From contig CBDDEI010000002.1 of NCBI GenBank assembly GCA_965226775.1, positions 2,278,930-2,342,929 on the forward strand: 64,000 bases of DNA. Reading direction: 5' to 3'. The notes under the pieces were generated by a model. It did not search any database. It was not told the origin of the DNA and saw nothing but the letters and a program-made list of their open reading frames with translations. Each line of letters begins with the position of its first letter. The first letter of the stretch is position 1. Origin of the DNA: Dehalococcoidia bacterium (GTDB lineage Bacteria > Chloroflexota > Dehalococcoidia > SHYD01). Positions 3,094 through 18,998 of this stretch are shown piece by piece. The position numbers and the translations under genes were made by a program.

Positions 3094-3707
3094 GCTACTT
3101 GTCATCCTCCAGTAATGTGTTACCCAAGCCCCGTTACCGGACCTTGGCCACATGACGGCCGCGCCGGGCAGTTGGGCGTCATAGAATATTTAGTGGATCC
3201 TCGTAAGCCCGCCGGTCTGCCAAAGTGGGTATCCGGGTGCTTCACTCGTTTATCTACCTAAGGTCGTCCAATCGACATCAGGTAAGTCCTCTATCCGGGA
3301 TTCTCAACGGAATTCCCCATTTGGGTTGCGCCCAAACCTTCCGTGGAGCCCCAATAGGATAGCGAGATTGTAGCCCTAGCCTCTAGGGCCCGTCAACCGC
3401 TCTAGGCTGAAGTGTAACCCTGCCACGTATAGCATGAGCAACTCCCGCAATCGCGTCGCCTCGGCCTGCTGAATTGGTGTCAGAGGACCTATTGCGCCTT
3501 GTCGCTGGGCGCCTTCAAAGATGCATCACACCAAGATCGTCGCTTAAGGGAATTGGAGATCTATCCTGGCATAGCCCGACCCTGTCTTCGCAATATTTGA
3601 TATAGTAGCCCTAAGGATAGGTATAGGATCGGCAGCCGTACGCCCGACGGTGTGTAGTCCACTGAGCTACGCCGCCCGGTGGGCTGACCCTGCCCAGGAG
3701 GAATTGC

Positions 3708-4199
3708 GTGTCTGCAAGAATTGCCGTCGTATTGGCGGGGTTGGCCGTGTTATTGTCTGCTTCGGCCCTGGTCGTCGCGGTCATAGCGCTTACCCAAGAT
3801 GCGCCCCCAGTGTACACACCGACCAAGGACGAGCCGGGCGCGTACACCAAATGGGTGGTGCAAGGTGCCATCCAGCACTACCAGCGGGACGGGTTGCAGG
3901 CAACCATGGAATACTACAGCAACCCTGAGCATGTTGACGGCCAGTGGTACGTGTTCATGATCAACGAAGAAGGCCGCACTTTTGTCCACTACAACCCTGA
4001 GCTCAGGAATCGCGACCCCAGCCTCCGCGTTGACTCGACCGGACGGTTCTATGGCGACGATCTGCTAGGAGCCACCGAAGAGGGCCGGTGGGTCGACTAC
4101 TTCATCAAGAATCCAGAGACGGGCGAGGATGACCAGAAGCACGCATGGATAGTTAAGCACGACGGTCTCTTGTTCGCCTCAGGCTGGTACGAACGGTAG
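3708..4199 (+). CDS. Stand-alone single Cache-like domain protein with N-terminal signal/anchor
   Basis: AGGAGG RBS and GTG start; hydrophobic N-terminus, then YVFMINEEG..VH.NP, WVDY..NP.TG..K.AW and SGWY motifs of sCache-type domains; no cytoplasmic output domain. Confidence 0.7.
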   Translation: MSARIAVVLAGLAVLLSASALVVAVIALTQDAPPVYTPTKDEPGAYTKWVVQGAIQHYQRDGLQATMEYYSNPEHVDGQWYVFMINEEGRTFVHYNPELRNRDPSLRVDSTGRFYGDDLLGATEEGRWVDYFIKNPETGEDDQKHAWIVKHDGLLFASGWYER

Positions 4200-4339
4200 C
4201 CCGCTCGCCCGGGGCGCAGCCGCCTCTTGTGCCTTACTCCTTACGGTAAGGGCTGCTCCCTCGGCGCACCACCCTGAACACCTGCTCCGCGACGACGTTG
4301 CTATCTTGCCGTCGCATCTTAGCCGTAGCTACGTGTCTG

Positions 4340-6488: not shown

Positions 6489-8690
6489 TCACACTCGTTC
6501 TTCTTCGTCGTCCGACTTGTCCCCGTCCTGCCCTACTGCAGCCTTCACGCGCGGCTCTAGGGGCAGTTCGATAATCATCTCGGTGAACTCGCCGGGTTCG
6601 GTTTCCACGCGGATGGTGCCACCATGCTCGCGCACGATGTCGTTGGAAATCGCAAGGCCTAGGCCAGTGCCTTGGCCGGTGGGCTTGGTGGTGAAGAACG
6701 GGTTGAATATCTTCTCCACCACTTCGGGCGGCATCCCGTTCCCATTGTCCCTGATGCGGATCACTATGTGGTTCTCCGTCCGCTTGGTAGAGAGCATGAG
6801 CATTGGAGAGTAGGCGCGGCGCCGCTTTCCGTTTCCATGCTGGCGCGCCGCTTCTCATCAGTCGCGTAACAGGCGTTCCCCACCATATTCAGGAATACGC
6901 GGCCCAAGTCCTGCGGAATAGCTTCTATTTCGCCGGCATCGGGGTCAAGGTCTTGCCTTATGTCCAGTTGGAAATCCGGGTCGCTCGCCCGTGCGCTATG
7001 GAAGGCAAGCCTGGCGAATTCGTCTACCAAAGAATTGATATTGGTGAGCTGCCACTCGGAGGAGCCTCTGCCCATCATGAGCATGTCGTGGACAATCCGG
7101 TTGGCGCGTTCCGTGTGCTGTCCGATGCGCTCGAGGTTGCCGGTGAGGTCATTAGAAATATCCTCAACGAGTCCCCGCTGGTTCTCGCTCATGTTATTTC
7201 CGTCCTCTTCGAGGGCTTCCCGCAGTTCTACAAGAAGTTCCCCCGAGACCTCGGAGAAGTTCTTCACGAAGTTCAGGGGGTTCCTGATTTCATGGGCTAC
7301 GCCGGCGGTGAGCTCGCCCAGCGCCGCCAGCTTCTCACGCATAACAATCTGGTTTTGCGCCCGGTGCAGCTCCCCAACGGTACTCTCCAGTTCAGCGTTC
7401 TTCTCCTTCAACTCCTCCGCCAGTAACTCCACCAAGTTCAGGCGCTGCACCTCAAGGGCATGCTGGCGGAACACCTCCAAGGCCGCAGCCATGTCTGCCA
7501 CCTCGTCGCGCCCGCCGATCTCTACCTGTGCCTCCAAGTCGCCTGCGGCCATACGGCGCATCCAGTCCGACAACAGCTCCAGACGGCGCAGCAGTACCCG
7601 GCCAACGAAGACCCAAGCAATGAGCACAGCGCCGACGACGCTGAATGCGCTGAGGCTCAGCAGAAGGGTGCGGCCTGTTTGGGTTGCTTCCGTTGAGGCG
7701 AGTGTGGCTTCCTGAGCATTCGCGTGGGCCTCGCTCACCAAGCCATTGACCTCGGCTACAAGGGCGACGGATATGTCGCGATTTTGCGCCAGCAGATCGC
7801 GTTGACTCGCGACCAGCCTAAGCTCCCGGTCAAGCAGATCGAAGCCGCCCTGCTCTCCGATTCCTAACTCTACCAGCCTCCTCAGGAGCGGGCCGACTTC
7901 GGCATGCAGCGAGGAATCCTCCAGCGATGCCAGGCTCCGCTCAATGCGGCCGGCTGAGGACTCGAAACGCTCCCGCAGCGGCTCGAGGTGAGGGGCCTCC
8001 GAGACGCTGAAAGCGCTTTCCAAGAGGTGCGCAGCGATGCTGGCGTCTGAGTGTAAGTCCGCAAGGTGGCGGTAACGGTCGAGTTCTATCTCCGAGAAAT
8101 GGTCCGTGCGGTTGGCCTGGGAGTCGTCGAGGGAGCGGTAGCCGGTCAACGTGTAAAAGAGCTGATCGTCTACGGCCGGAACCAGCAAGTTGTCCAAGCG
8201 AGTGAGTAGTTCCTCCTCAAGCTCCGTTCGCAGTGCTCCAGAGCGGGCTCTCAGGTCGAAGATCTCCGTCCTCTCGTCCTCAATGGCCTGGATGTTACTG
8301 AATAGCTCGTTGGCGTTGGCTTGGATACGCGTTCGAAGTCTTCGTCGTACCCTTGATCCCGTCCCAGAATAGCCAGCTCTTCCTCCAAGGCCTGGTGCGC
8401 TTCGGTGATTTCGGCGTCGGCCAGAGCAAGCTCTTCAGGAGTTACGGCCGTCGTCAGGCGGGGGCCGCGACCACCAGGGTACCGCTGTGCTGTGCAACTC
8501 CGAAAGCGGCCACCAACGCCGGAACGCTGTTTTCGTTTACGCGACCTTGGGCTTCGCCCACCCGGTTGAAGGAAAACCAGCCCACCAAGCTCGCGGTCAG
8601 CGTCATAACGACACCGCCCCCGATTGCCAGGTAGAGTTGCGTGGAGATACGGTTGCGCCGCTCCAGCAGGCTCATCAATCGGGCTTGCAT
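6489..8690 (-). CDS. TorS-like sensor histidine kinase (helical extracytoplasmic sensor, HAMP, HisKA, HATPase); three apparent 1-nt deletions (~8462, ~8332, ~6830)
   Basis: Pieces join in order: TM1 (QLYLAIGGGVVMTLTASLVGW) in 8454-8690; sensor, TM2, HAMP (GRDEVADMA), H-box AGVAHEIRNPL and N-box FLNMVGNA in 6764-8197; DNGNG and GTGLGL G-boxes in 6489-6803. Start overlaps the upstream stop (TAATG). Confidence 0.8.
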
Positions 8691-9966
8691 TATCGCGCGT
8701 CCTGCAAGCTGCCGACGGACTGATAGTTGCCGTCGGTGCCGATAGTAGTCAGGAATACTTTGTCGGAGCCTTGGTTGTCGCCGGAGCCGTATCGTAGTTC
8801 AAACCCATTGATGTCGACGACGTCGGCGCGGCGCAGGCTGTCCAAGAAGCAGGCCCGGTCGACCTCCTGGCCGCAGCCGTTAAGGCCGGCGATAGCCAAG
8901 CGGCCTGCCAAGTATCCCTCAAAGGAGACGAAGCCGGGGATGGCGTTGGCGTCGTAGTCTGCTAGAGCATCGAGATAGGCGGCAGTGACTGGGAGAGAAT
9001 CGTCCGTCGGGAAGGGCACCACTTGGGTGACATAGACACCGGCGCCGTCGGGACCGAGTTCCTCCGCCAGTGCGTTGCTGCCTACAAAGGAAACGGTCAG
9101 GAAGACCGGGTTCATGCCCAAGTGCCGCGCCCATGTGATCAGCGCCGCTACCGGCTTGTAGGCCCCGATCATGATGACGGCCTCCGGCGACCCATCGCTC
9201 AGGTCCAGCAGGGCGGTCTTTACGGCTATTGTGTTGCGCGTGTACAACCCGATGGACACCGGTTCCAACCCGCGCTTATCCAGCGCAAGCCGCACTCCCT
9301 ATACCCGGCGCGGCCGTAGGAGTCGTCCTGATACATCACCGCGATACGATATATGCCAAGGTCTTCAGTAAGGCGGGCAACCATCTCCTCAGTCTCCTGG
9401 TAGTAGGAGGCGCGCAGGTTGAGGATGTTGTCCCACTTGGGATCGCGCAGGAATTCGGCGCCGGTGAACGGAGCGATGAAGGGAACGTTTGCTTCCGCAG
9501 CGACAGGAGTGGCGGAGCGCGACGTAGGCGTGCCCACCTCGCCAATCAGCGCGAAGACCCCCTCCTCGATCAGTTGGAGGGTGTTGGTGATGGCGGCTTC
9601 TGGTTCGTAGGCGTCGTCTAAGGAACTGAGCTCCAACTGCCGGCCATGGACGCCGCCGCCCTTGTTCGCTTCGTGGAACGCCGCCTCAATACCCAGCCGC
9701 ATGTTCCTGCCCAACTCCTGGGCGGGACCACTGAAGGCGGCGGACTGGCCGAAGAGGACGCGATCGTCTGAAACGCCTGGTACTGAAGGAGAGCCGCCAG
9801 TCTGCCCATTCGCAGGAGCGGCCGGTGGGTTAGTAACGGGAACTTCGGGATTGTCTGCGGAATTGCACGCAAGGCTGACGGCTGCGATGAGGGCTACGAG
9901 TAGCACGGGCAGAACGGCCCGCTGCGAGAAGGGGGAGGCTATGGGCGGACGAGGGATACGCTTCAT
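8690..9966 (-). CDS. Type I extracytoplasmic solute-binding lipoprotein (branched-chain amino acid ABC SBP-like); one frameshift ~9298
   Basis: Lipobox SLAC; GQSAAFSGPA, GGVHGRQLEL, DDAYEP, GEVGTPT, NLRASY. The frame changes in a G run (TAT AGG GAG -> GGA GTG) and continues in 8690-9295. Confidence 0.85.
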
Positions 9967-10382
9967 TTTGGCCTGCGGGCGACCAAGGTCAGGTGGTTCC
10001 TCTCCTCCTCACGCCGATAGTGCACCTCGTCCATCATCGTGCGTACCAGATGGACGCCGAGGCCGCCCACCTTCCGCTCACCGACCGGTGCATCCAAGTC
10101 TGGTTCGGGAACGTCGTTCAGCGGGTCGAAGGGCCGGCCGTCGTCCACGATCTCGATTGTAAGTGTGTCGGCCTCCGAAGTAAGGGTGACGTCGAACTCG
10201 TGGATACCTTCGCTATACCCGTAATCCATGACGTTGAGCACCATTTCTTCGAGCGCCATGTTCACCCGGAAGACGAAATCGGGAGGCCATTCCTCCTGCT
10301 CTGCTAGGCCTTCCATGGCAGCGACGACGGTTTCCAGTTCGTCACGCCTGGTCGCGACCTTCAGCGACAGCCTCGCACTCAT
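9963..10382 (-). CDS. Anti-sigma factor Ser kinase (RsbW/SpoIIAB-like, HATPase_c_2)
   Basis: ALEEMVLNVMDYG, DDGRPFDP, GGLGVHLV; ATGA overlaps with both neighbours. Confidence 0.9.
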   Translation of the reverse strand: MSARLSLKVATRRDELETVVAAMEGLAEQEEWPPDFVFRVNMALEEMVLNVMDYGYSEGIHEFDVTLTSEADTLTIEIVDDGRPFDPLNDVPEPDLDAPVGERKVGGLGVHLVRTMMDEVHYRREEERNHLTLVARRPK

Positions 10383-11551
10383 CTTTCGAACTCGCCTCGG
10401 CAAAGCGTGAGACAGGTAATATCATCGGACTGCGGGGTGCCGACGACGAAGGTGTCCACGGCATGGAGGACTCCCATATTGGCCTCTTCTGCATTCGCCG
10501 GGGCCCCCTCCGTGAAGATCGCCCGCAGGCGGTCATTCCCGAACTCCTCGGACTCCCCGTTCATCGCTTCGGTAACTCCGTCGGTGTACAGCACTATGGT
10601 GTCGCCAGGGGAGAGGGTGAGGCTGCCTTCCCGGTACTCAAGGTCGGGTACCAGGCCGAGGGCGATGCCGTCGGTCAAGGGAAGCAATTCCGATTTTCCG
10701 TCAGCGTGAACGATGAGCGGTGAGTTGTGACCGCCGTTAGCATAGGTCAGCTCCCCGCTCGCCGGATCATACACCGCGTACAGAATGGTCACGAACATCG
10801 CGGCTTCGTTATCCTCGTTGAGCAAGTTGTTGACCTCGCGCAACACAGCGCCGGGGTCGGAGGTGCCGATGGCCGCGCCTTTTAGCAGGGTGCGGGTGGA
10901 CATCATGAAGAGGGCAGCGATTACTCCCTTGCCGGAAACGTCCGCAATGGCCACGCCGATTTTTCCGTTCTCCAAGCGCATGATGTCAAAGAAATCGCCG
11001 CCCACGCTGCGCGCGGGTTTCATGCTGCCGAAGACCTCGTAGCTGGGCCCCTTGGGGAACTGGGTTGGAAGGATAGACTGCTGCATACTGCTGGCCACGT
11101 CGAGCTCGTTCTGCAGGACAACCAGCTTGTCCCTAGACTCGAGCGCATCACGCCACTCGGCTATGCTGCTCAGCGTCCGTTCGATGGTGACTTCAAGGTC
11201 CTCAAAGTCAATGGGTTTGGTGACAAAGTCAAACGCCCCACGGTTCATCGCCGTGCGAATGTTCTTCATGTCTCCGTAAGCAGAGATAATAACCGCACGT
11301 AAATCGGGGTCCACTTTGGGTATCTGTTGCAGCAGCGTAAGGCCGTCCATCTGGGGCATGTTGATGTCGGAGAGCACCATTACGATCTCTTTGTCTTCAT
11401 GTAGCCGCGCCAAGGCCTCTATACCGTTCTGTGCAAAGACGAACGTGTAGCTGCCGTCCCGGATTTTGCGCCGCATACGCTGCAGCACCAGGGGCTCTAC
11501 ATCCGGTTCGTCGTCAACTACGAGTATCTTGTACGGCTGTTGCAGCGTCAT
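10379..11551 (-). CDS. Response-regulator receiver fused to PP2C/SpoIIE phosphatase (RsbU/RsbP-like)
   Basis: VVDDE, LSDINMP and TKP receiver motifs; GGDFFD, ADVSGKG, NGGH, YTDGVTE and DDIT PP2C motifs. Confidence 0.92.
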   Translation of the reverse strand: MTLQQPYKILVVDDEPDVEPLVLQRMRRKIRDGSYTFVFAQNGIEALARLHEDKEIVMVLSDINMPQMDGLTLLQQIPKVDPDLRAVIISAYGDMKNIRTAMNRGAFDFVTKPIDFEDLEVTIERTLSSIAEWRDALESRDKLVVLQNELDVASSMQQSILPTQFPKGPSYEVFGSMKPARSVGGDFFDIMRLENGKIGVAIADVSGKGVIAALFMMSTRTLLKGAAIGTSDPGAVLREVNNLLNEDNEAAMFVTILYAVYDPASGELTYANGGHNSPLIVHADGKSELLPLTDGIALGLVPDLEYREGSLTLSPGDTIVLYTDGVTEAMNGESEEFGNDRLRAIFTEGAPANAEEANMGVLHAVDTFVVGTPQSDDITCLTLCRGEFER

Positions 11552-11757
11552 GCTTTGATAACTCGCTTTGCTAGCAAATAATGTAGTCCCAAGCCTCTGT
11601 CGTGCTCGTCTTAGTCACTAGACAAGCGGGCGTGGGCTTGACTCGTCGGTCTCGTTGCCCGGTTCGGCTATACCCGGTTCCCTCGCGATTATTCGTACAG
11701 CTTCTAGCAGGGCGGGCTGGTCATGCGGAGGGGACGGCGACGCGACGCGTATCCCAG

Positions 11758-12135
11758 TTATTTACTGACTGCGGAAAGCGCGTCGTCCTGCGCGGCGTAA
11801 GTTGGGATGATCTTGTCAAAGCCGCTAATCTGGAACACCTCGCTAATGGGGCCTGGGAGCGAGCACACTGCAAATTTCGCAGACTGACTCTGTAGCTGCT
11901 TGGCCACTAGAAGTATGACCCTGAGCCCTGCGCTGCTGATATAGGACAGCTTCTCCATGTCCAAGACCATGGCGCTGTTGCTCCCTTCCAAGACGGTTTG
12001 CAGGGCGCCCTGGAGTTGACTGGCGTTGCTGCCGTCGACGCGGCCCGTGGCCTTTACGACCAATGTCCCGGCCTTCTGTTCGCCCTCTAAGGTCAAATCC
12101 TTTATATCGTCAACCGTCCAAGTGTTAGCTTCCAT
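11758..12135 (-). CDS. STAS anti-sigma factor antagonist (RsbV/SpoIIAA-like)
   Basis: LDMEKLSYISSAGLR with phosphorylatable Ser, VFQISGF; AAGGAG RBS before ATG 12135. Confidence 0.92.
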   Translation of the reverse strand: MEANTWTVDDIKDLTLEGEQKAGTLVVKATGRVDGSNASQLQGALQTVLEGSNSAMVLDMEKLSYISSAGLRVILLVAKQLQSQSAKFAVCSLPGPISEVFQISGFDKIIPTYAAQDDALSAVSK

Positions 12136-12482
12136 TAGGGCCTGCTCCTTTATAATTGCTATCCAAGATTCCACTTGACCACAATGGGCATATTCCGCGC
12201 CCAATGACATCGGTAAGTCTTGTCGACCCTCGCGTCCTCTTCAATGCTTCGGGCAGAGATTTGCTCATACTACTATATTAAAACCCTGTAAGTCTCTTCA
12301 AGTAATACCTAAAACTCAGTTTCCGCCGTCGACTGTGCCGGCATCTGTGGAGTCCGAAATAGCAGCGGGCAACCACGGTTTACCCGCGGTCATGATAGTC
12401 CCCCACACTCTGCCAGTACCGGTGTCGCACCAGCACCCTGCTTGCGGGCTTCAGCTTCGTAGACTTCTCCGCAGCAAGCCTG

Positions 12483-12497
12483 TAGGATATTATCCTA
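12483..12497. promoter_or_regulatory. Perfect palindrome TAGGATA-T-TATCCTA, candidate operator
   Basis: 7-bp inverted repeat with 1-nt centre, ending 23 bp before the ATG at 12521, in the divergent STAS/Rid intergenic region. Confidence 0.35.
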
Positions 12498-12520
12498 AAT
12501 CAATCGTGGAGGAACAAGTC

Positions 12521-13678
12521 ATGCCGCAACGTCGTCAGTGTTATCAGCTTTCAGACACCTCTGCCGAGCGCGATCCGTGGGGCTCACCCGCTGCAACAAA
12601 GCTCGGCGACTATCTATTCTCCGGCGCTTGCACAGGCCAGGACCCCGCCACGGGCCAACTGGCGCAGGGCGCAGACCAGCAGGCGGCTCAAGCCTTCATG
12701 AACGTGAAGGCAGTGGTCGAGAGCTCCGGCTTCAGCACAGACGACATTCTCCGGGTGTGGGTCTGGCTAAAGGACTGGAGCGCACAAGATGCAGTAAAGA
12801 AACCCTGGATGGAGCTGTTCCCGAATCCGGACAGCCGGCCTGCGGCCACGTTCGTGGCAGCAGCAGACCTCCCGCCCGGTCAGCTCCTGCAGGTCGAGAT
12901 TGCAGCAAAGCAGAGTAGTGATGCGCGTCGCAGCATCAGCATCCCCGGTGCAACCCTTGACGATGCCTATCCCACCATCTCCATCAAGGGAGATTGGTTC
13001 GCAACGGGCTCGCTCCAGGGCGATAGCGGAGCCCCCACCCCAGACCAGGCCGAGAGTCTGCACGGACGACTGCAGGCAGCGCTGGAAGCAGCCGGCACCA
13101 ACACCGATAGCGTCGCCCATATATTGTCCTGGTATCGCGACCACAGCTCACGTGATGTCCAGAATACGCCCTTCGCAAGACTCTTCCCGATGTTGGGTGA
13201 CCGGCCAAACCGCCACTCGGTTATTCGAGATATGCCGGACGGTATCGAGATCACTTCGGAGGCCATGGGCGTTGTGGGCGGGATGCGCGTGAACTTCACC
13301 ATGCACGGCCCGCGGCATGGCGGCATCGATGGGCTGTCGAACTCGCTTCCCCTGGGCATAGCCATCGGAAACCTGGTGCACTCAGCTGGAACCATGGGCC
13401 GCGACCCGGTTACCGACGACACTCCCAAAGACCCCAACATGCAGGCGGAGCTCGCGTTGGCAAACACCCGGCGCCTGATGGAAGCCGCAGGGCTTTCCCT
13501 CTCAGACATCGGCCACATGTTTGTCTGGCACAAGGGTCAGGCCGCCCGTGACGCTCTGAATGCGCCCTTGCAGGCCTTTTTCCCCGACCCCAACGACCGC
13601 CCCGCCTGGCACGTCCTTGAAGCTGACCTGCCGGGAGACATGGTGGTCCAAGTGGAGGTCATCGCTGTCAGGCCATAG
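12521..13678 (+). CDS. Protein with three fused RidA/YjgF domains
   Basis: GGAGG RBS; three ~125-aa units with RP motifs (RPAAT, RPNRH, RPAWH), each ending in a VEIAA/ITSEAMG/VEVIA-like strand. Confidence 0.8.
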   Translation: MPQRRQCYQLSDTSAERDPWGSPAATKLGDYLFSGACTGQDPATGQLAQGADQQAAQAFMNVKAVVESSGFSTDDILRVWVWLKDWSAQDAVKKPWMELFPNPDSRPAATFVAAADLPPGQLLQVEIAAKQSSDARRSISIPGATLDDAYPTISIKGDWFATGSLQGDSGAPTPDQAESLHGRLQAALEAAGTNTDSVAHILSWYRDHSSRDVQNTPFARLFPMLGDRPNRHSVIRDMPDGIEITSEAMGVVGGMRVNFTMHGPRHGGIDGLSNSLPLGIAIGNLVHSAGTMGRDPVTDDTPKDPNMQAELALANTRRLMEAAGLSLSDIGHMFVWHKGQAARDALNAPLQAFFPDPNDRPAWHVLEADLPGDMVVQVEVIAVRP

Positions 13679-14760: not shown

Positions 14761-17700
14761 ATGCGCAACAGCATCTTCACCAGCAGGGTAGCCGCACTGG
14801 CCCTCTTTGCCGTTGTTGGCTTTTTTGCCGCCCTCGCGCCCCCCATTGCATCCCTAAACCTGGCCCGCGCCCACTCGCCGGGCGGCGCCACCCTCACTGC
14901 GCTGTCGGTGACTGCGGGAGGGACGGCGCAAACGCTCTCCCCGACGTTTAGCAGCACGGTGACTGACTACACGGTCGCCGTGGCCAACACCGTGACCCAG
15001 ATCACCATCGAGGCCACGCCGGACGGCGACGGCACTGTGGCCTATCAGAACACGGACGGGACGACGCTTACGGACGCCGACACGAACACTGCCGGCCAGC
15101 AGGTGAACCTCCCCGCGGGGGACGACAAGCGCATCAACGTGGTGGTGACCCATACCGACAGCGGGACGACGACGACGCAGACCTACCGCGTGCTGGTGAG
15201 CCGCGAGGCGACGGACGACCCATGCGACGGCGGCGGCTACAACCCAACGCCCACGGCCGTCACGGTGGACACCGTGCCTATCGTGGTCGAGTCCACCACT
15301 GACGACTACTTTGTGCTCTACGTGAACCACGAAGTGAACGGCAGGGAGGTGGAGCTGCCGGTCCTGGTGAAGCGGGGCGAAGCCGGGACGACCGAGCTGG
15401 ACGAGAATATCGAGGCGCTGCCCCCGGAACGCTACCGGGTGGAGAAGTACCTCATCTCGGACCCGGCCGACGTCGATGGCGACTGCATCGACGACATCAC
15501 CGAGCTGGACGACTATGGGAAAATGAACCCGGTCAACTTCGCCGCGTCAATTGCCTTTAAGCACGGCACTGTCACCATTCCCGATCGCAGGACCTTCGAA
15601 CGGCTCTCTTACCAAGGTGATGATGTGCAGATTGACCAGCATCTCGCCGGTCTGGAGTACGTCAAGTTCTTCATCACCCGCATGAATTCCGACCAGCCAG
15701 CGGTCTATTTCATGAACACGGTTAGACACCGGTGTCACTGCACTTTTGCCCTCGCTGTCAATTTTACGTTCAGAAAAGGGATGCGCGGCGAGATCATCTA
15801 CCACCCCAATGTCGTGGCGCCGGACGGTTCGATAGGCGTCTACCGGTTCGAATTCGAGCCGGGGGATAACTATCCCTTTCGGGCTGTGCAATATGGGTAT
15901 GAGGTGCTGGCCGCCAGCATGCCGCTGCTTGAGAACAACCTAGCGTACTACCCGATGCCCTACCGCGCGCTACCGCGGTATCACAGAGAAAAGGAGCAGT
16001 ATGACGCCTCCCGGGTCAAAGTGTTGTTGGAAGAGGACATCTTACCCGATGTTGATTTCATCTCCCTCAACCAAGAGACCGGTTACGGGTTCTTGCGAGT
16101 CATGTCGCTGGACGAGCGTCCCTATCCTCGCGACATCGTGATCTATGACACGCTGCCCAACGACCTGCCACGGGTCGCCGGCATCATGACCACCGTGCCG
16201 CAAACGCCGCTCTCGCACGTCAACCTGCGCGCCGTGCAAGACGGCGTTCCCAATGCCTTTATCCGCGACGCCCTTGATGATGACACCATTGATGACCTGA
16301 TCGACAGCCACGTCCAATACACTGTCACGCAGGACGGCTACACCATCCGCGCGGCCAACAAGGCGGAAGTCGACGCCCACTACGAGGCTTCCCGCCCGAC
16401 CACGGCGCAGACGCCGGTGCGGAACCTCTCGGTCACCGAGATCACAGCGCTCAGCGATATCGGATTCGACGACTGGGATGCGTTCGGGGTGAAGGCGGCG
16501 AACGTGGCCGTGCTGGGGACGCTGGGGTTCCCGGCGGGCACCGTCCCCGACGGATTTGCCGTGCCCTTCTATTTCTACGACGAGTTCATGAAGGCCAACG
16601 ACCTCTATGCCATGGTCTCAACCATGCTGGCAGACTCCGACTTCCAGACGGACTACGACACACAGGAGGACGAGCTCAAGCAACTGCGCTCGGCCATAAA
16701 GGATGCAACCACGCCGGACAGGATCATCACCGCGCTTGAGGCTATGCACGCGGAGTTCCCGGACGGCACGTCACTGCGCTACCGCTCCAGCACCAACAAT
16801 GAGGACCTGCCGGGATTCAGCGGCGCCGGGCTGTACGACTCCAAGACGCAGGACCCCGACGAGACCGAGGAAGACGGGATCGACAAGTCGATCAAAGGGG
16901 TTTGGGCGAGCCTGTGGAACTTCCGCGCCTTTGTCGAACGTGACTTCCACCGCGTCGACCACTATGCGACGGCGATGGGAGTCCTGGTGCACCCCAACTA
17001 CTCAGACGAGCTGGTCAACGGCGTCGCCGTCAGTTTCGATCCCTTCAATGGCAGAGAGGGGAGCTACTACGTCAACAGCCAGGTCGGCGAGGACCTGGTC
17101 ACCAATCCCGACGCGCGCTCGATTCCAGAGGAACTCCTGTTGGGCCCGGTTGGGGGCACGTATGGGCCATTCACGATTCTTGGTACTTCCAACCAAGTAC
17201 CGGCTGGGCAACTCCTCATGACGGAAACTCAAATGGCCCAGTTACGTCAACACCTCGAGGTGATCCACGACCACTTCGCGGGGCTGTACGACCCTGTAGC
17301 CGGCAAACCGTTCGCCATGGAGATCGAGTTCAAGATCACCAGCGAGAATGTCCTGGCGATTAAGCAGGCCCGCCCCTGGGTCTTTGGCTCAGCAGAAACG
17401 GTAACCCCGCCGCCCACGAACCAGGCCCCTGTGTTCACGGATGGCGCAAGTACAACCCGCAGCGTGGCCGAAACCACCACCGCGGGCGTGAACATCGGCG
17501 CACCGGTCGCAGCCACCGACCCCGACAACGATCCCCTGACCTACAGCCTGGGCGGCGACCGATGCGGCCTCCTTCGACATCGTCGCGTCCTCCGGCCAGT
17601 TGCAGACCAAGCTCCCTCTGGACCGAGAGACCAAGGCCAGTTACTCCGTCACCGTGTCAGTCAGCGACGGCGACCCCGACACGGCGATCGACACCACGAC

Positions 17701-18998
17701 CACGGTGACGATCAACGTCACCACCACAACCACCGCCACTGCCACCGCTACCGCCACTGCCACTGCCACCGCCACAACCTCATCGGGGAGCAGGGGAGGA
17801 GGAGGAGGCCGCGGCCGCGCTACCCCAACGCCAACACCAACTCCGAGCCCAACGCCTACGGCGACACCAACCCCTACCGGACCGCAGTTCTCCGGCTTGA
17901 TTGCCGCTGAGCCCAGCGTGACCGCAACGGTGGTTCCTGAGGGCACTACCCTGGGCCTCAACGGCGGCGCAGACCTGCCAGGCGGCGTCTACGTGAACTT
18001 CCCGCCCACCGCAGTGGCCTTGCCGGTGCACGTGAGCGTCTCGGTGAGCAACGAAGCACCGAGCGACGTGGTTGCGCCCAGCGGCACCACCTCTGCTGCC
18101 GCTCACCATCGACATCACTCCGGAAACTCCCATCACCCTGGGCGAGCCGCTGACCATTGAAATCAACCCCACGCCGGAACAGCTGGAGGCCGCAGGCGGT
18201 GACCTGAACAACCTCTCCGTGGGCGTGGTGACCCCCAACGGCATTGTGGTGCTGCCCGCGCAGGTGATGCACGGCAGGCTGGTGGTGACCACCGACCGCC
18301 TCGCCCCCTTCGTCCTGTTAGCCATCACGGACACCGGCCCAGTTCTGACCCAGCCGCCTATGGGCGATGCCTCGTCCATGGGCCCGCTGCTGCAGTGGAC
18401 CCAACCGCCGCGCACTACCTGGTTCCAGGTGCAGGTGATCCCCTTCAATGAGGACGGCCCCGGCATCAACCTGGTTATCGGCGACCGCGCGCTGGTGCGC
18501 GCCGCGCAGTACCAGGTCCTGGGCCCCAACTTCGGCAGCGCCGACCCCAACTACGTGATGCTGCCCGGCATGACCTACCTCTGGCGGGTGCGCACTACCA
18601 CGGTGACCACGAACCCCACGGAGGACGACTGGAGCGCGTGGGCAGTGAGCAGCTTCAAGACACCGCCAGCCAGCAGCAGCACCATCACCCCGGTGGCGCC
18701 GCCGGCCTTTGCGGAGGTGAGCACGCTCACCCCGACGTTGACCTGGGCGAACTCCAACACCACCGTGTTCTACTACGAGGTGCAGGTTAGCAAGGACTAC
18801 GCGTTCGGGCCGAACGCCTTCCTCTACAGTGAGTACGTCCATGGCGGAGCCAGCACCCCGCCCAACAGCTACGTGGTGCCGGCAGCCTTCCCGCTAGAGG
18901 CAGGCGAGATCTACTACTGGCGCGTCCGGCCGCGGATTCAGGGCGACGGCGACCCGCTGCCGTGGAGCGCCACCTACGTGTTCCTAGCGCCGGGCTAG
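14761..18998 (+). CDS. Secreted multidomain protein: signal peptide, cadherin-like sandwich, unknown domain, phospho-His swivel-like motif, PEP-synthase/PPDK-type ATP-grasp domain, cadherin domain, shared C-terminal cassette; frameshifts ~17557 and ~18091
   Basis: Signal peptide MRNSIF...ARA-HS; TLTALSVT..LSPTFSSTVTDYTV (cadherin-like); TPLSHVNLRAVQDGVP (His at 16216); GVKAAN (Lys 16492); RSSTNNEDLPGFSGAGLYDS (16783); IEFKI...IKQARP; NQAPVF..ATDPDND cadherin. Pieces 17600-18160 and 18072-18998 continue in order. Confidence 0.8.

Follow-up and report, generated by a model that had tools for sequence, protein, structure and literature searches.

A conserved five-gene cassette combines a solute-binding protein and a TorS-like sensor kinase with a STAS/RsbW partner switch in Chloroflexota and other phyla

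Gene organisation of the locus

We analysed a 64,000-nucleotide stretch of DNA (hereafter the window) from a Dehalococcoidia bacterium (GTDB lineage Bacteria; Chloroflexota; Dehalococcoidia; SHYD01; GenBank assembly GCA_965226775.1, contig CBDDEI010000002.1, forward-strand positions 2,278,930 to 2,342,929). The subject of this study is a cassette of five minus-strand genes at positions 6489-12135, encoding, in this order, a STAS-domain protein, a response regulator with a PP2C phosphatase output (REC-PP2C), an RsbW-like serine kinase, an orphan solute-binding protein and a sensor histidine kinase (Table 1). The source genome consists of two contigs (2.42 Mb), and the window lies within the main contig, C2.

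An earlier reading of this DNA from its letters alone (the original prediction) had proposed these five genes and their positions, their linkage through overlapping stop and start codons with the STAS gene just upstream, and an operon containing neither ATP-binding cassette (ABC) permease or ATPase genes nor a DNA-binding regulator. The gene list, Pfam searches and a reading of the junctions bear this out. The REC-PP2C and RsbW-like genes overlap in an ATGA (10379-10382), the RsbW-like and binding-protein genes in a second ATGA (9963-9966), and the binding-protein and kinase genes in a TAATG (8690-8694); a gap of 206 nucleotides separates the STAS gene from REC-PP2C. Permease and ATPase genes were found neither in the window operon nor among the conserved neighbours of the 80 related loci described below. 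Pfam detects no DNA-binding domain in the cassette, and a TorR-type regulator is absent.

Table 1. Positions of the cassette genes, reading-frame breaks and a candidate promoter in the window.
Feature	Position	Strand	Description
STAS-only protein, 125 amino acids	11758-12135	minus	Pfam STAS 67.4 bits; anti-sigma-antagonist type
REC-PP2C, 390 amino acids	10379-11551	minus	Pfam Response_reg 80.9 bits and SpoIIE 180.9 bits (cut-off 25); SpoIIE-type phosphatase output
RsbW/SpoIIAB-like serine kinase, 139 amino acids	9963-10382	minus	Pfam HATPase_c_2 92.9 bits (cut-off 27.4)
Orphan type I solute-binding protein	8690-9966	minus	Pfam Peripla_BP_6 in two pieces, 113 and 57 bits
Sensor histidine kinase	6489-8692	minus	First transmembrane helix, TorS-type helical sensor of ~300 amino acids, second transmembrane helix, HAMP, HisKA, HATPase_c
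Break in binding-protein gene	~9296-9300	minus	1 base missing, GGG instead of GGGG
Break in kinase gene	~8459-8464	minus	1 base missing in a C run, C5 instead of C6
Break in kinase gene	~8324-8332	minus	2 extra bases
Break in kinase gene	~6816-6819	minus	1 base missing
Candidate promoter, weak sigma-70-like match	12272-12301	minus	TTGAAG-18-TATAGT, ~135 nucleotides upstream of the STAS start

All three constituents of a partner switch are present, namely a STAS antagonist with its Ser, a HATPase_c_2 serine kinase and a PP2C phosphatase, and these are the sole STAS, RsbW-like and PP2C genes found in the source genome. The STAS protein scores 78.6 bits against the NCBIfam anti-sigma factor antagonist model TIGR00377 (cut-off 53.45), and its translation contains the motif SYISSAGLRVIL with a conserved Ser in ISSAGL, which, aligned by eye, we take to correspond to Ser58 of SpoIIAA and to the phosphorylated Ser of RsbV. 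The cassette contains a single receiver, that of REC-PP2C. The translation of this protein shows the Asp motif of the receiver (LSDINMP) and the metal motifs of PP2C (GGDFFD, DVSGKG, TDGVTE and DDITCL), and its top NCBIfam match is Pseudomonas RssB, at 125 bits far under the cut-off of 700. GHKL motifs can be read in the translation of the small kinase, as can the H box (HEIRNPL) and the N and G boxes in that of the histidine kinase. The signal peptide of the binding protein ends in VSLAC, the Cys of which makes this protein a probable lipoprotein. Intact relatives encode a binding protein of 425 amino acids (an intact ortholog is found in locus L011) and a histidine kinase of 732-733 amino acids, the latter being split over four frames in the window.

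Conservation and spread of the cassette

The sensor part of an intact kinase, used as a protein query, retrieved at least 1804 relatives, many with a precomputed TorS_sensor_domain match. A sensor-domain alignment scan of species-representative genomes gave 564 confirmed relatives, and the best 80 of these 564 form the basis for the locus counts given here; the open reading frames of these loci were searched with the window's own proteins, and the phylum was assigned by record title. The order STAS, REC-PP2C, RsbW-like protein, binding protein and kinase, all on one strand, recurs in approximately 70 of the 80 loci. As these loci were retrieved by the sensor alone, the gene arrangement is far beyond chance. 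The loci derive from Chloroflexota (66), Latescibacterota (6), Spirochaetota (5), Acidobacteriota (2) and Verrucomicrobiota (1). The original prediction had named a synteny search as a check, with a lack of conservation elsewhere as an outcome that would speak against it; what is found is conservation across five phyla.

Four-base overlaps occur between binding-protein and kinase genes in 60 of the 80 loci, between RsbW-like and binding-protein genes in 49 of 73, and between PP2C and RsbW-like genes in 59 of 71. An intact operon of the same order is also present in the sister genome G001 (same genus, single contig) and in G014, a genome from another family. Most loci are located on single-contig chromosomes, hence binning errors are unlikely to explain this distribution.

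In a tree of the kinases, the Latescibacterota, Acidobacteriota and Opitutales sequences are intermixed with strong support and short branches, which points to transfer of the cassette between phyla. The window's own fragment, cut out of frame and with a spurious branch length of 10, was disregarded in this tree. Within the class Dehalococcoidia, the sensor was found in 51 of 301 evenly sampled genomes (17%), representing only 17 of 192 genera, and in the window's family it is confined to the window's own genus.

The composition of the cassette varies in some loci. REC-PP2C, binding protein and kinase occur without STAS and RsbW-like genes in G029 and in four of the five Spirochaetia loci, and five loci contain an extra stand-alone receiver. 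The persistence of the trio where STAS and RsbW are absent supports the notion that regulator, binding protein and kinase are the most stable core and form one signalling unit. In the Dehalococcoidia locus L062 (11048-15293), the cassette is directly followed by a second set of STAS, REC-PP2C, RsbW-like and kinase genes (the latter encoding 801 amino acids), which lacks a binding protein and has no TorS sensor according to Pfam.

The cassette surroundings are unremarkable with respect to mobility: no integrase or transposase is present in the gene list around the cassette, and the GC content is even there. A fused multi-domain RidA (L-PSP) gene (12335-13678, plus strand) is divergent from the STAS gene, and its position is kept in the sister genome and in four close strain contigs, where it is called with 385 amino acids. 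The promoter consensus scan gave 4 sites against 2.1 in shuffled sequences, which is not beyond chance, and the same holds for the terminator scan. The REC-PP2C gene has a synonymous divergence from the sister genome of 0.35, compared to 0.12-0.15 for its four cassette neighbours, which suggests that a diverged allele has recombined into this gene alone. An exact protein look-up found no identical copy of the window REC-PP2C protein.

A TorS-like sensor and a LivJ-fold binding protein

TorS-like sensing, as originally predicted, is upheld by both profile and fold comparisons. An intact ortholog of the kinase scores 44.6 bits against the Pfam family PF21689 (TorS_sensor_domain, cut-off 27); the largest kinase fragment of the window reaches 25.4 bits, kept just under the cut-off by the splitting of the gene. 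The N-terminal 370 residues were modelled with AlphaFold from 30 locus-encoded sequences, and the model is all-helical with a mean predicted local distance difference test score of 84.5. Foldseek ranks six TorS sensor structures as the best PDB matches of this model (template modelling scores of 0.57-0.79 relative to the target), three of these being from TorS-TorT complexes (0.77-0.79), and the next matches are the double four-helix bundles of chemoreceptors. Searching the PDB with a sequence profile of the sensor returned nothing meaningful, and the kinship to TorS is visible only by Pfam on the intact ortholog and by fold.

The best NCBIfam match of the intact kinase is TIGR02956 (TorS), which aligns residues 16-440 with model positions 3-431 (i.e. 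the sensor and HAMP regions) at 172.6 bits compared to a cut-off of 676.5. Beyond the sensor, the kinase contains only HAMP, HisKA and HATPase_c domains, without a receiver or a histidine phosphotransfer (HPt) domain. Given this domain make-up and the TIGR02956 score, the kinase is TorS-like at its sensing end yet not a TorS.

Kinases stimulated by binding proteins are established, with TorT-TorS as the structural model (review PMC8050422). In TorT-TorS of Escherichia coli and Vibrio parahaemolyticus (PDB 3O1H, 3O1I, 3O1J, 3I9Y and 3I9W), as in the cassette, a transporter-less type I binding protein is encoded beside the kinase, and the kinase sensor is a stacked double four-helix bundle. In contrast, TorS has the unorthodox architecture, with both a receiver and an HPt domain, and signals to the DNA-binding regulator TorR, whereas the cassette kinase has a plain HAMP-HisKA-HATPase core and its partner would be a phosphatase. 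The two binding proteins also differ, as TorT binds trimethylamine N-oxide (TMAO) and is listed as Peripla_BP_1 in PMC8050422, whereas the cassette protein is a Peripla_BP_6.

The cassette binding protein has a LivJ fold (PF13458) and its closest solved relative is the structural-genomics protein PDB 4KV7 (E 8e-66), which matches across the whole mature protein and shares an FTGA motif. It scores only 58 bits against the curated LivJ model NF011933, for which the cut-off is 477. The residues of LivJ that contact the ligand amino and carboxyl groups are presumably Ser79, Ala100, Thr102, Tyr202 and Glu226, and LivJ contacts were mapped through a HMMER alignment. Thr146 (the Ser79 equivalent) and Tyr270 (Tyr202) are kept, and the Tyr150 position is occupied by Tyr or Phe. 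In contrast, Ala100-Ala101-Thr102 is replaced by Phe167-Thr168-Gly169, Glu226 by Ser293 and Tyr18 by Leu. Across 77 orthologs from five phyla, every mapped pocket position but one is invariant, and conservation reaches 97% or more at 158 of the 354 mature positions. An invariant pocket with replaced LivJ contacts makes it probable that one and the same ligand is bound everywhere, and that it is not a standard amino acid.

Hence, the cassette family resembles LivJ/LivK and 4KV7 in fold family, and is set apart from LivJ/LivK by the altered positions that hold the amino and carboxyl groups and by the lack of linked importer genes. The TMAO-type ligand envisaged in the original prediction finds no support, as the binding protein is a LivJ-like Peripla_BP_6 rather than TorT-like, with a pocket that is also unlike that of LivJ. 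The Chloroflexota proteins inspected have a Cys after the signal peptide, while those inspected from Latescibacterota and Opitutales have a plain signal peptide; this fits the one- and two-membrane envelopes of these groups.

The binding protein could in principle serve an ABC importer encoded elsewhere, with the kinase sensing its ligand directly. Four other Peripla_BP_6 paralogs are present in the genome, presumably with importers, and binding proteins may act in both transport and signalling (PMC8050422). We consider this very unlikely, given that in at least 60 loci from five phyla the binding-protein gene keeps its place between the RsbW-like and kinase genes, its stop and start codons overlapping with theirs, that no ABC genes accompany the cassette, and that the only sensor class with a solved binding-protein complex is the TorS type.

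Proposed signalling pathway and relation to known partner switches

Our favoured reading, which we hold to be likely, is that of a self-contained five-gene signalling cassette in which information passes from binding protein to kinase, REC-PP2C and finally STAS/RsbW, with an output that is probably not of the SigB/SigF type. With the domain make-up, the motifs, the modelled TorS-type fold, the tight gene coupling, synteny across five phyla and purifying selection as the observed ground, we infer each of the protein-protein and phosphotransfer steps that follow. The exported and probably lipid-anchored binding protein would capture a small solute and, in the manner of TorT and TorS, dock on the kinase at its double four-helix-bundle sensor. 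Docking would set the kinase/phosphatase balance of the HAMP-HisKA-HATPase core, and the kinase would phosphorylate the REC-PP2C receiver and thereby alter its phosphatase activity, following the logic of RsbK-RsbY in Bacillus cereus and HptB-HsbR in Pseudomonas aeruginosa. The PP2C domain would dephosphorylate the STAS protein, and the RsbW-like kinase would phosphorylate it on the conserved Ser. Unphosphorylated STAS would then sequester the RsbW-like protein, releasing whatever the latter otherwise holds, which is probably no SigB/SigF-type sigma factor.

The wiring put forward in the original prediction is largely retained in this scheme. A binding protein without transporter genes, translationally coupled to the kinase here and adjoining it in at least 75 loci from five phyla, and REC-PP2C as the sole receiver, are both observed; the step to an unlinked sigma factor is not sustained (see below), and the remainder we likewise infer.

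REC-PP2C partner switches driven by two-component input have been described (PMC4574943, PMC6482189 and PMC10950880). In the RsbK-RsbY-RsbV-RsbW-SigB system of B. cereus (PMC4574943), a histidine kinase acts on a REC-PP2C, which in turn acts on a STAS antagonist opposed by RsbW. The cassette architecture fits this scheme, with kinase and REC-PP2C genes together in at least 70 loci. In contrast to the cassette kinase, RsbK is of the hybrid type, carries different sensor domains and lacks a binding-protein partner. Furthermore, the B. cereus module sits with and controls sigB, whereas the cassette has no linked sigma gene and its genome no SigB-type sigma factor.

HptB-HsbR-HsbA and RssB-RssC of P. 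aeruginosa (PMC6482189) provide examples of phosphorelay-driven REC-PP2C proteins that act on STAS proteins with an output other than classical SigB. They differ from the cassette in that HsbR fuses receiver, PP2C and kinase, and is fed by several hybrid kinases through an HPt protein. We know of no binding-protein input to either of these Pseudomonas systems. In Mycobacterium smegmatis, the two-component system RsfS-RsfR likewise feeds into a STAS/RsbW partner switch (PMC10950880); it differs in controlling the known sigma factor SigF and in monitoring the respiratory chain rather than an extracellular solute via a binding protein. In the tables of PMC8050422 we found neither a Peripla_BP_6 and kinase pair nor a binding-protein input to a partner switch. 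The parts of the cassette are all of known kinds, and it is their combination (a TorS-type kinase with binding protein, REC-PP2C and STAS/RsbW, and no matching sigma factor) that is absent from the literature searched.

Reading-frame integrity of the window copy

Several observations weigh against the cassette reading. The RsbW-like protein fails the curated models of its namesakes, with 39.6 bits compared to a cut-off of 145 for NF003144 (RsbW) and 27.1 bits compared to 135 for TIGR01925 (SpoIIAB). The binding protein is in a Pfam family other than that of TorT, and the only signalling case among Peripla_BP_6 proteins that we found in PMC8050422, a 2021 review, is an archaeal chemoreceptor partner. 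The remaining observations concern the window copy itself. Frameshifts in the kinase, mentioned in the original prediction, are indeed present in this sequence: three disrupt the kinase and a fourth the binding protein (Table 1). The reference for these breaks is the sister genome, in which all five cassette genes are intact with the same overlaps, encoding a kinase of 733 and a binding protein of 425 amino acids. The four uncompensated insertions or deletions (indels) fall within 3.5 kb, compared to approximately one per 17 kb elsewhere in C2 (i.e. ~20 times the background), and two of the four lie outside homopolymers. The source genome is also the only one with a split sensor among the 51 positive Dehalococcoidia genomes; in the other 50 the sensor kinase is a single open frame of 729-818 amino acids (one with a TAG). 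This clustering of indels is equally compatible with genuine decay of the input module and with local assembly trouble.

If decay were real, the binding protein and kinase would be a true pseudogene pair in this strain, and the rest of the switch (STAS, REC-PP2C and RsbW) would persist, orphaned or itself decaying, without access to its signal. In addition to the density, context and singularity of the breaks, such decay is favoured by the fact that all four uncompensated coding indels found in 13 kb of comparison with the sister genome are located in these two genes, with none in the other three cassette genes or the flanks. We nevertheless regard a pseudogene pair as doubtful. For the binding protein and the kinase, the ratios of non-synonymous to synonymous substitution rates relative to the sister genome are 0.20 and 0.16, respectively, matching the 0.12-0.18 of the three unbroken genes (0.16 for REC-PP2C). 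On the window-specific branch, using contig C1 (see below) and the sister genome as references, the C-terminal 520 codons of the kinase have acquired 14 synonymous and 3 non-synonymous changes, demonstrating strong purifying selection on the kinase up to the present.

Comparison to close relatives also argues against established decay. None of the four breaks is found in any relative compared, i.e. they are unique to the window. Among six independent relatives at 94-98% DNA identity, both genes are intact in the sister genome and in L101-L104, and L106 is in frame at all four sites. Three independent assemblies contribute four further long contigs (~98% DNA identity) that encode a protein identical to the RsbW-like protein, as does a fifth, short contig; each of the four long contigs has an intact cassette with a 425-residue binding protein and a kinase of 732 or 733 residues.

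The assembly itself offers a further explanation. Contig C1 (52,069 bases) is a 97-98.7% identical strain variant of 56 kb of the main contig, C2:2230909-2286977, so the assembly mixes two strains in this overlap region. C1 terminates inside the kinase gene at window position 8048, and it is in frame at the single break that it spans (~6816-6819). The breaks adjoin the end of this strain-variant contig, where poor consensus quality is likely. C1 and C2 differ by 49 indels, several of which break open reading frames in one or the other copy, and each copy keeps frames that are broken in the other. Similar assemblies break conserved genes elsewhere: in L101 (1-1623, compared to window 14761-17910) a dikinase-like exported gene that is whole in the window (1049 amino acids) is split into 784 and 431 amino acids by a single-base difference, and in L106, a contig with a name indicative of 2x coverage, the binding-protein gene is itself split. 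Such frame-breaking single-base indels in C1/C2, L101 and L106 make assembly errors of this type plausible here.

Because the breaks are unique, the relatives intact and selection unrelaxed, an assembly error (from low-coverage long-read consensus) or a very recent event in one strain is the likely origin of the broken frames. Programmed frameshifting was considered and rejected, as sign and sequence context vary among the four sites and no relative has any of them. Elsewhere in the window, at ~3100-4300, a run of single-base indels relative to the sister genome and L106 surrounds a gene for a 163-residue sCache_2-like protein and its flanks; this stretch may be non-coding, or reflect poor consensus or decay.

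Candidate outputs: sigma factors

The source genome encodes six sigma-70 family proteins, consisting of a 501-residue RpoD and five members of the size of extracytoplasmic function (ECF) sigma factors (193-215 amino acids). Sigma70 region 3 is present only in RpoD, both in this genome and in the sister genome, and the usual target of such a switch, a SigB/SigF-type sigma factor, is thus absent. The same holds more widely, with 9 of 22 further cassette-bearing Chloroflexota genomes having no second region-3 sigma factor besides RpoD. Furthermore, no sigma gene occurs among the conserved neighbours in the 80 loci. These findings leave the original prediction of an unlinked sigma factor of the SigB/SigF kind unsupported.

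It is possible, though in our view improbable, that the switch controls a sigma factor encoded elsewhere, which here would be RpoD or one of the five ECF-sized proteins. The RsbW-like protein does belong to the anti-sigma serine kinase family (HATPase_c_2, with low-scoring hits to RsbW and SpoIIAB), the STAS protein exceeds the cut-off of the superfamily model for anti-sigma antagonists, and six sigma-70 genes are available as targets. RsbW has reportedly been seen to bind the primary sigma factor in Chlamydia. On the other side stand the restriction of region 3 to RpoD and the lack of sigma neighbours described above, and we know of no RsbW-type kinase that holds an ECF sigma factor.

Association with ammonium transporters

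In 29 of the 80 loci, a gene for an ammonium transporter (Amt) is found no more than 8 kb from the cassette, where chance would give approximately 1%. The linkage takes at least four arrangements in Chloroflexota, Acidobacteriota and Latescibacterota, with Amt placed directly after the kinase, between genes for a circularly permuted ATP-grasp and an Alpha-E protein, or as an amtB-glnK pair directly before STAS (5 loci). The ATP-grasp/Amt/Alpha-E trio flanks the cassette on either side in L018, L022-L025, L035, L040, L049, L052, L055, L075, L085, L092 and others, again from Chloroflexota, Acidobacteriota and Latescibacterota. ATP-grasp and Alpha-E homologs are absent from the source genome. That genome does contain an Amt gene at C2:1228588-1230081, a close ortholog (772 bits) of the cassette-linked type without an adjacent PII/glnK gene and ~1 Mb away from the cassette, as well as a second Amt at C2:867970-869610 in a classical amtB then glnK arrangement.

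These observations open the tentative and rather unlikely alternative that STAS and RsbW act post-translationally on nitrogen acquisition, for example through an ammonium channel or through the flanking ATP-grasp/Alpha-E genes, with the binding protein sensing a nitrogen compound. The frequency of Amt linkage, its occurrence in three phyla, the five loci with amtB-glnK directly upstream of STAS and the retained Amt ortholog in the source genome all speak for it, as does the membership of the binding protein in a fold family that binds amino acids, amides and urea. However, no Amt gene is linked to the cassette in the window or in its closest relatives, and the loci are phylogenetically non-independent. 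The neighbourhood may moreover indicate co-regulation or co-transfer rather than direct control, and we found no precedent in the literature searched. The link between cassette and Amt is hence an association only, and control of nitrogen uptake is the most interesting open reading rather than the explanation.

Taken further, and with still lower expectation, the cassette might be a unit exchanged among unrelated phyla of uncultured marine, probably sponge-associated bacteria that share a habitat, sensing one nitrogen compound of host or community and using STAS/RsbW for a sigma-free, PII/GlnK-like control of ammonium uptake or nitrogen starvation. The hint of habitat comes from record names (COS3_bin, Langseth_MAG) only, and a literature search for one name of this type returned no match.

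Significance of the cassette

The cassette is real, conserved and uncharacterised. The window copy itself adds modestly to this picture, being one more copy, possibly broken or mis-assembled, without a linked target gene. With at least 564 relatives in species-representative genomes, the cassette is common; it has been exchanged among phyla and is strongly constrained, and therefore likely reports a signal that is important in its habitat. It would offer a defined and testable example of a partner switch whose output is not a sigma factor, and would add a ligand class so far unfamiliar among sensors of the LivJ fold.

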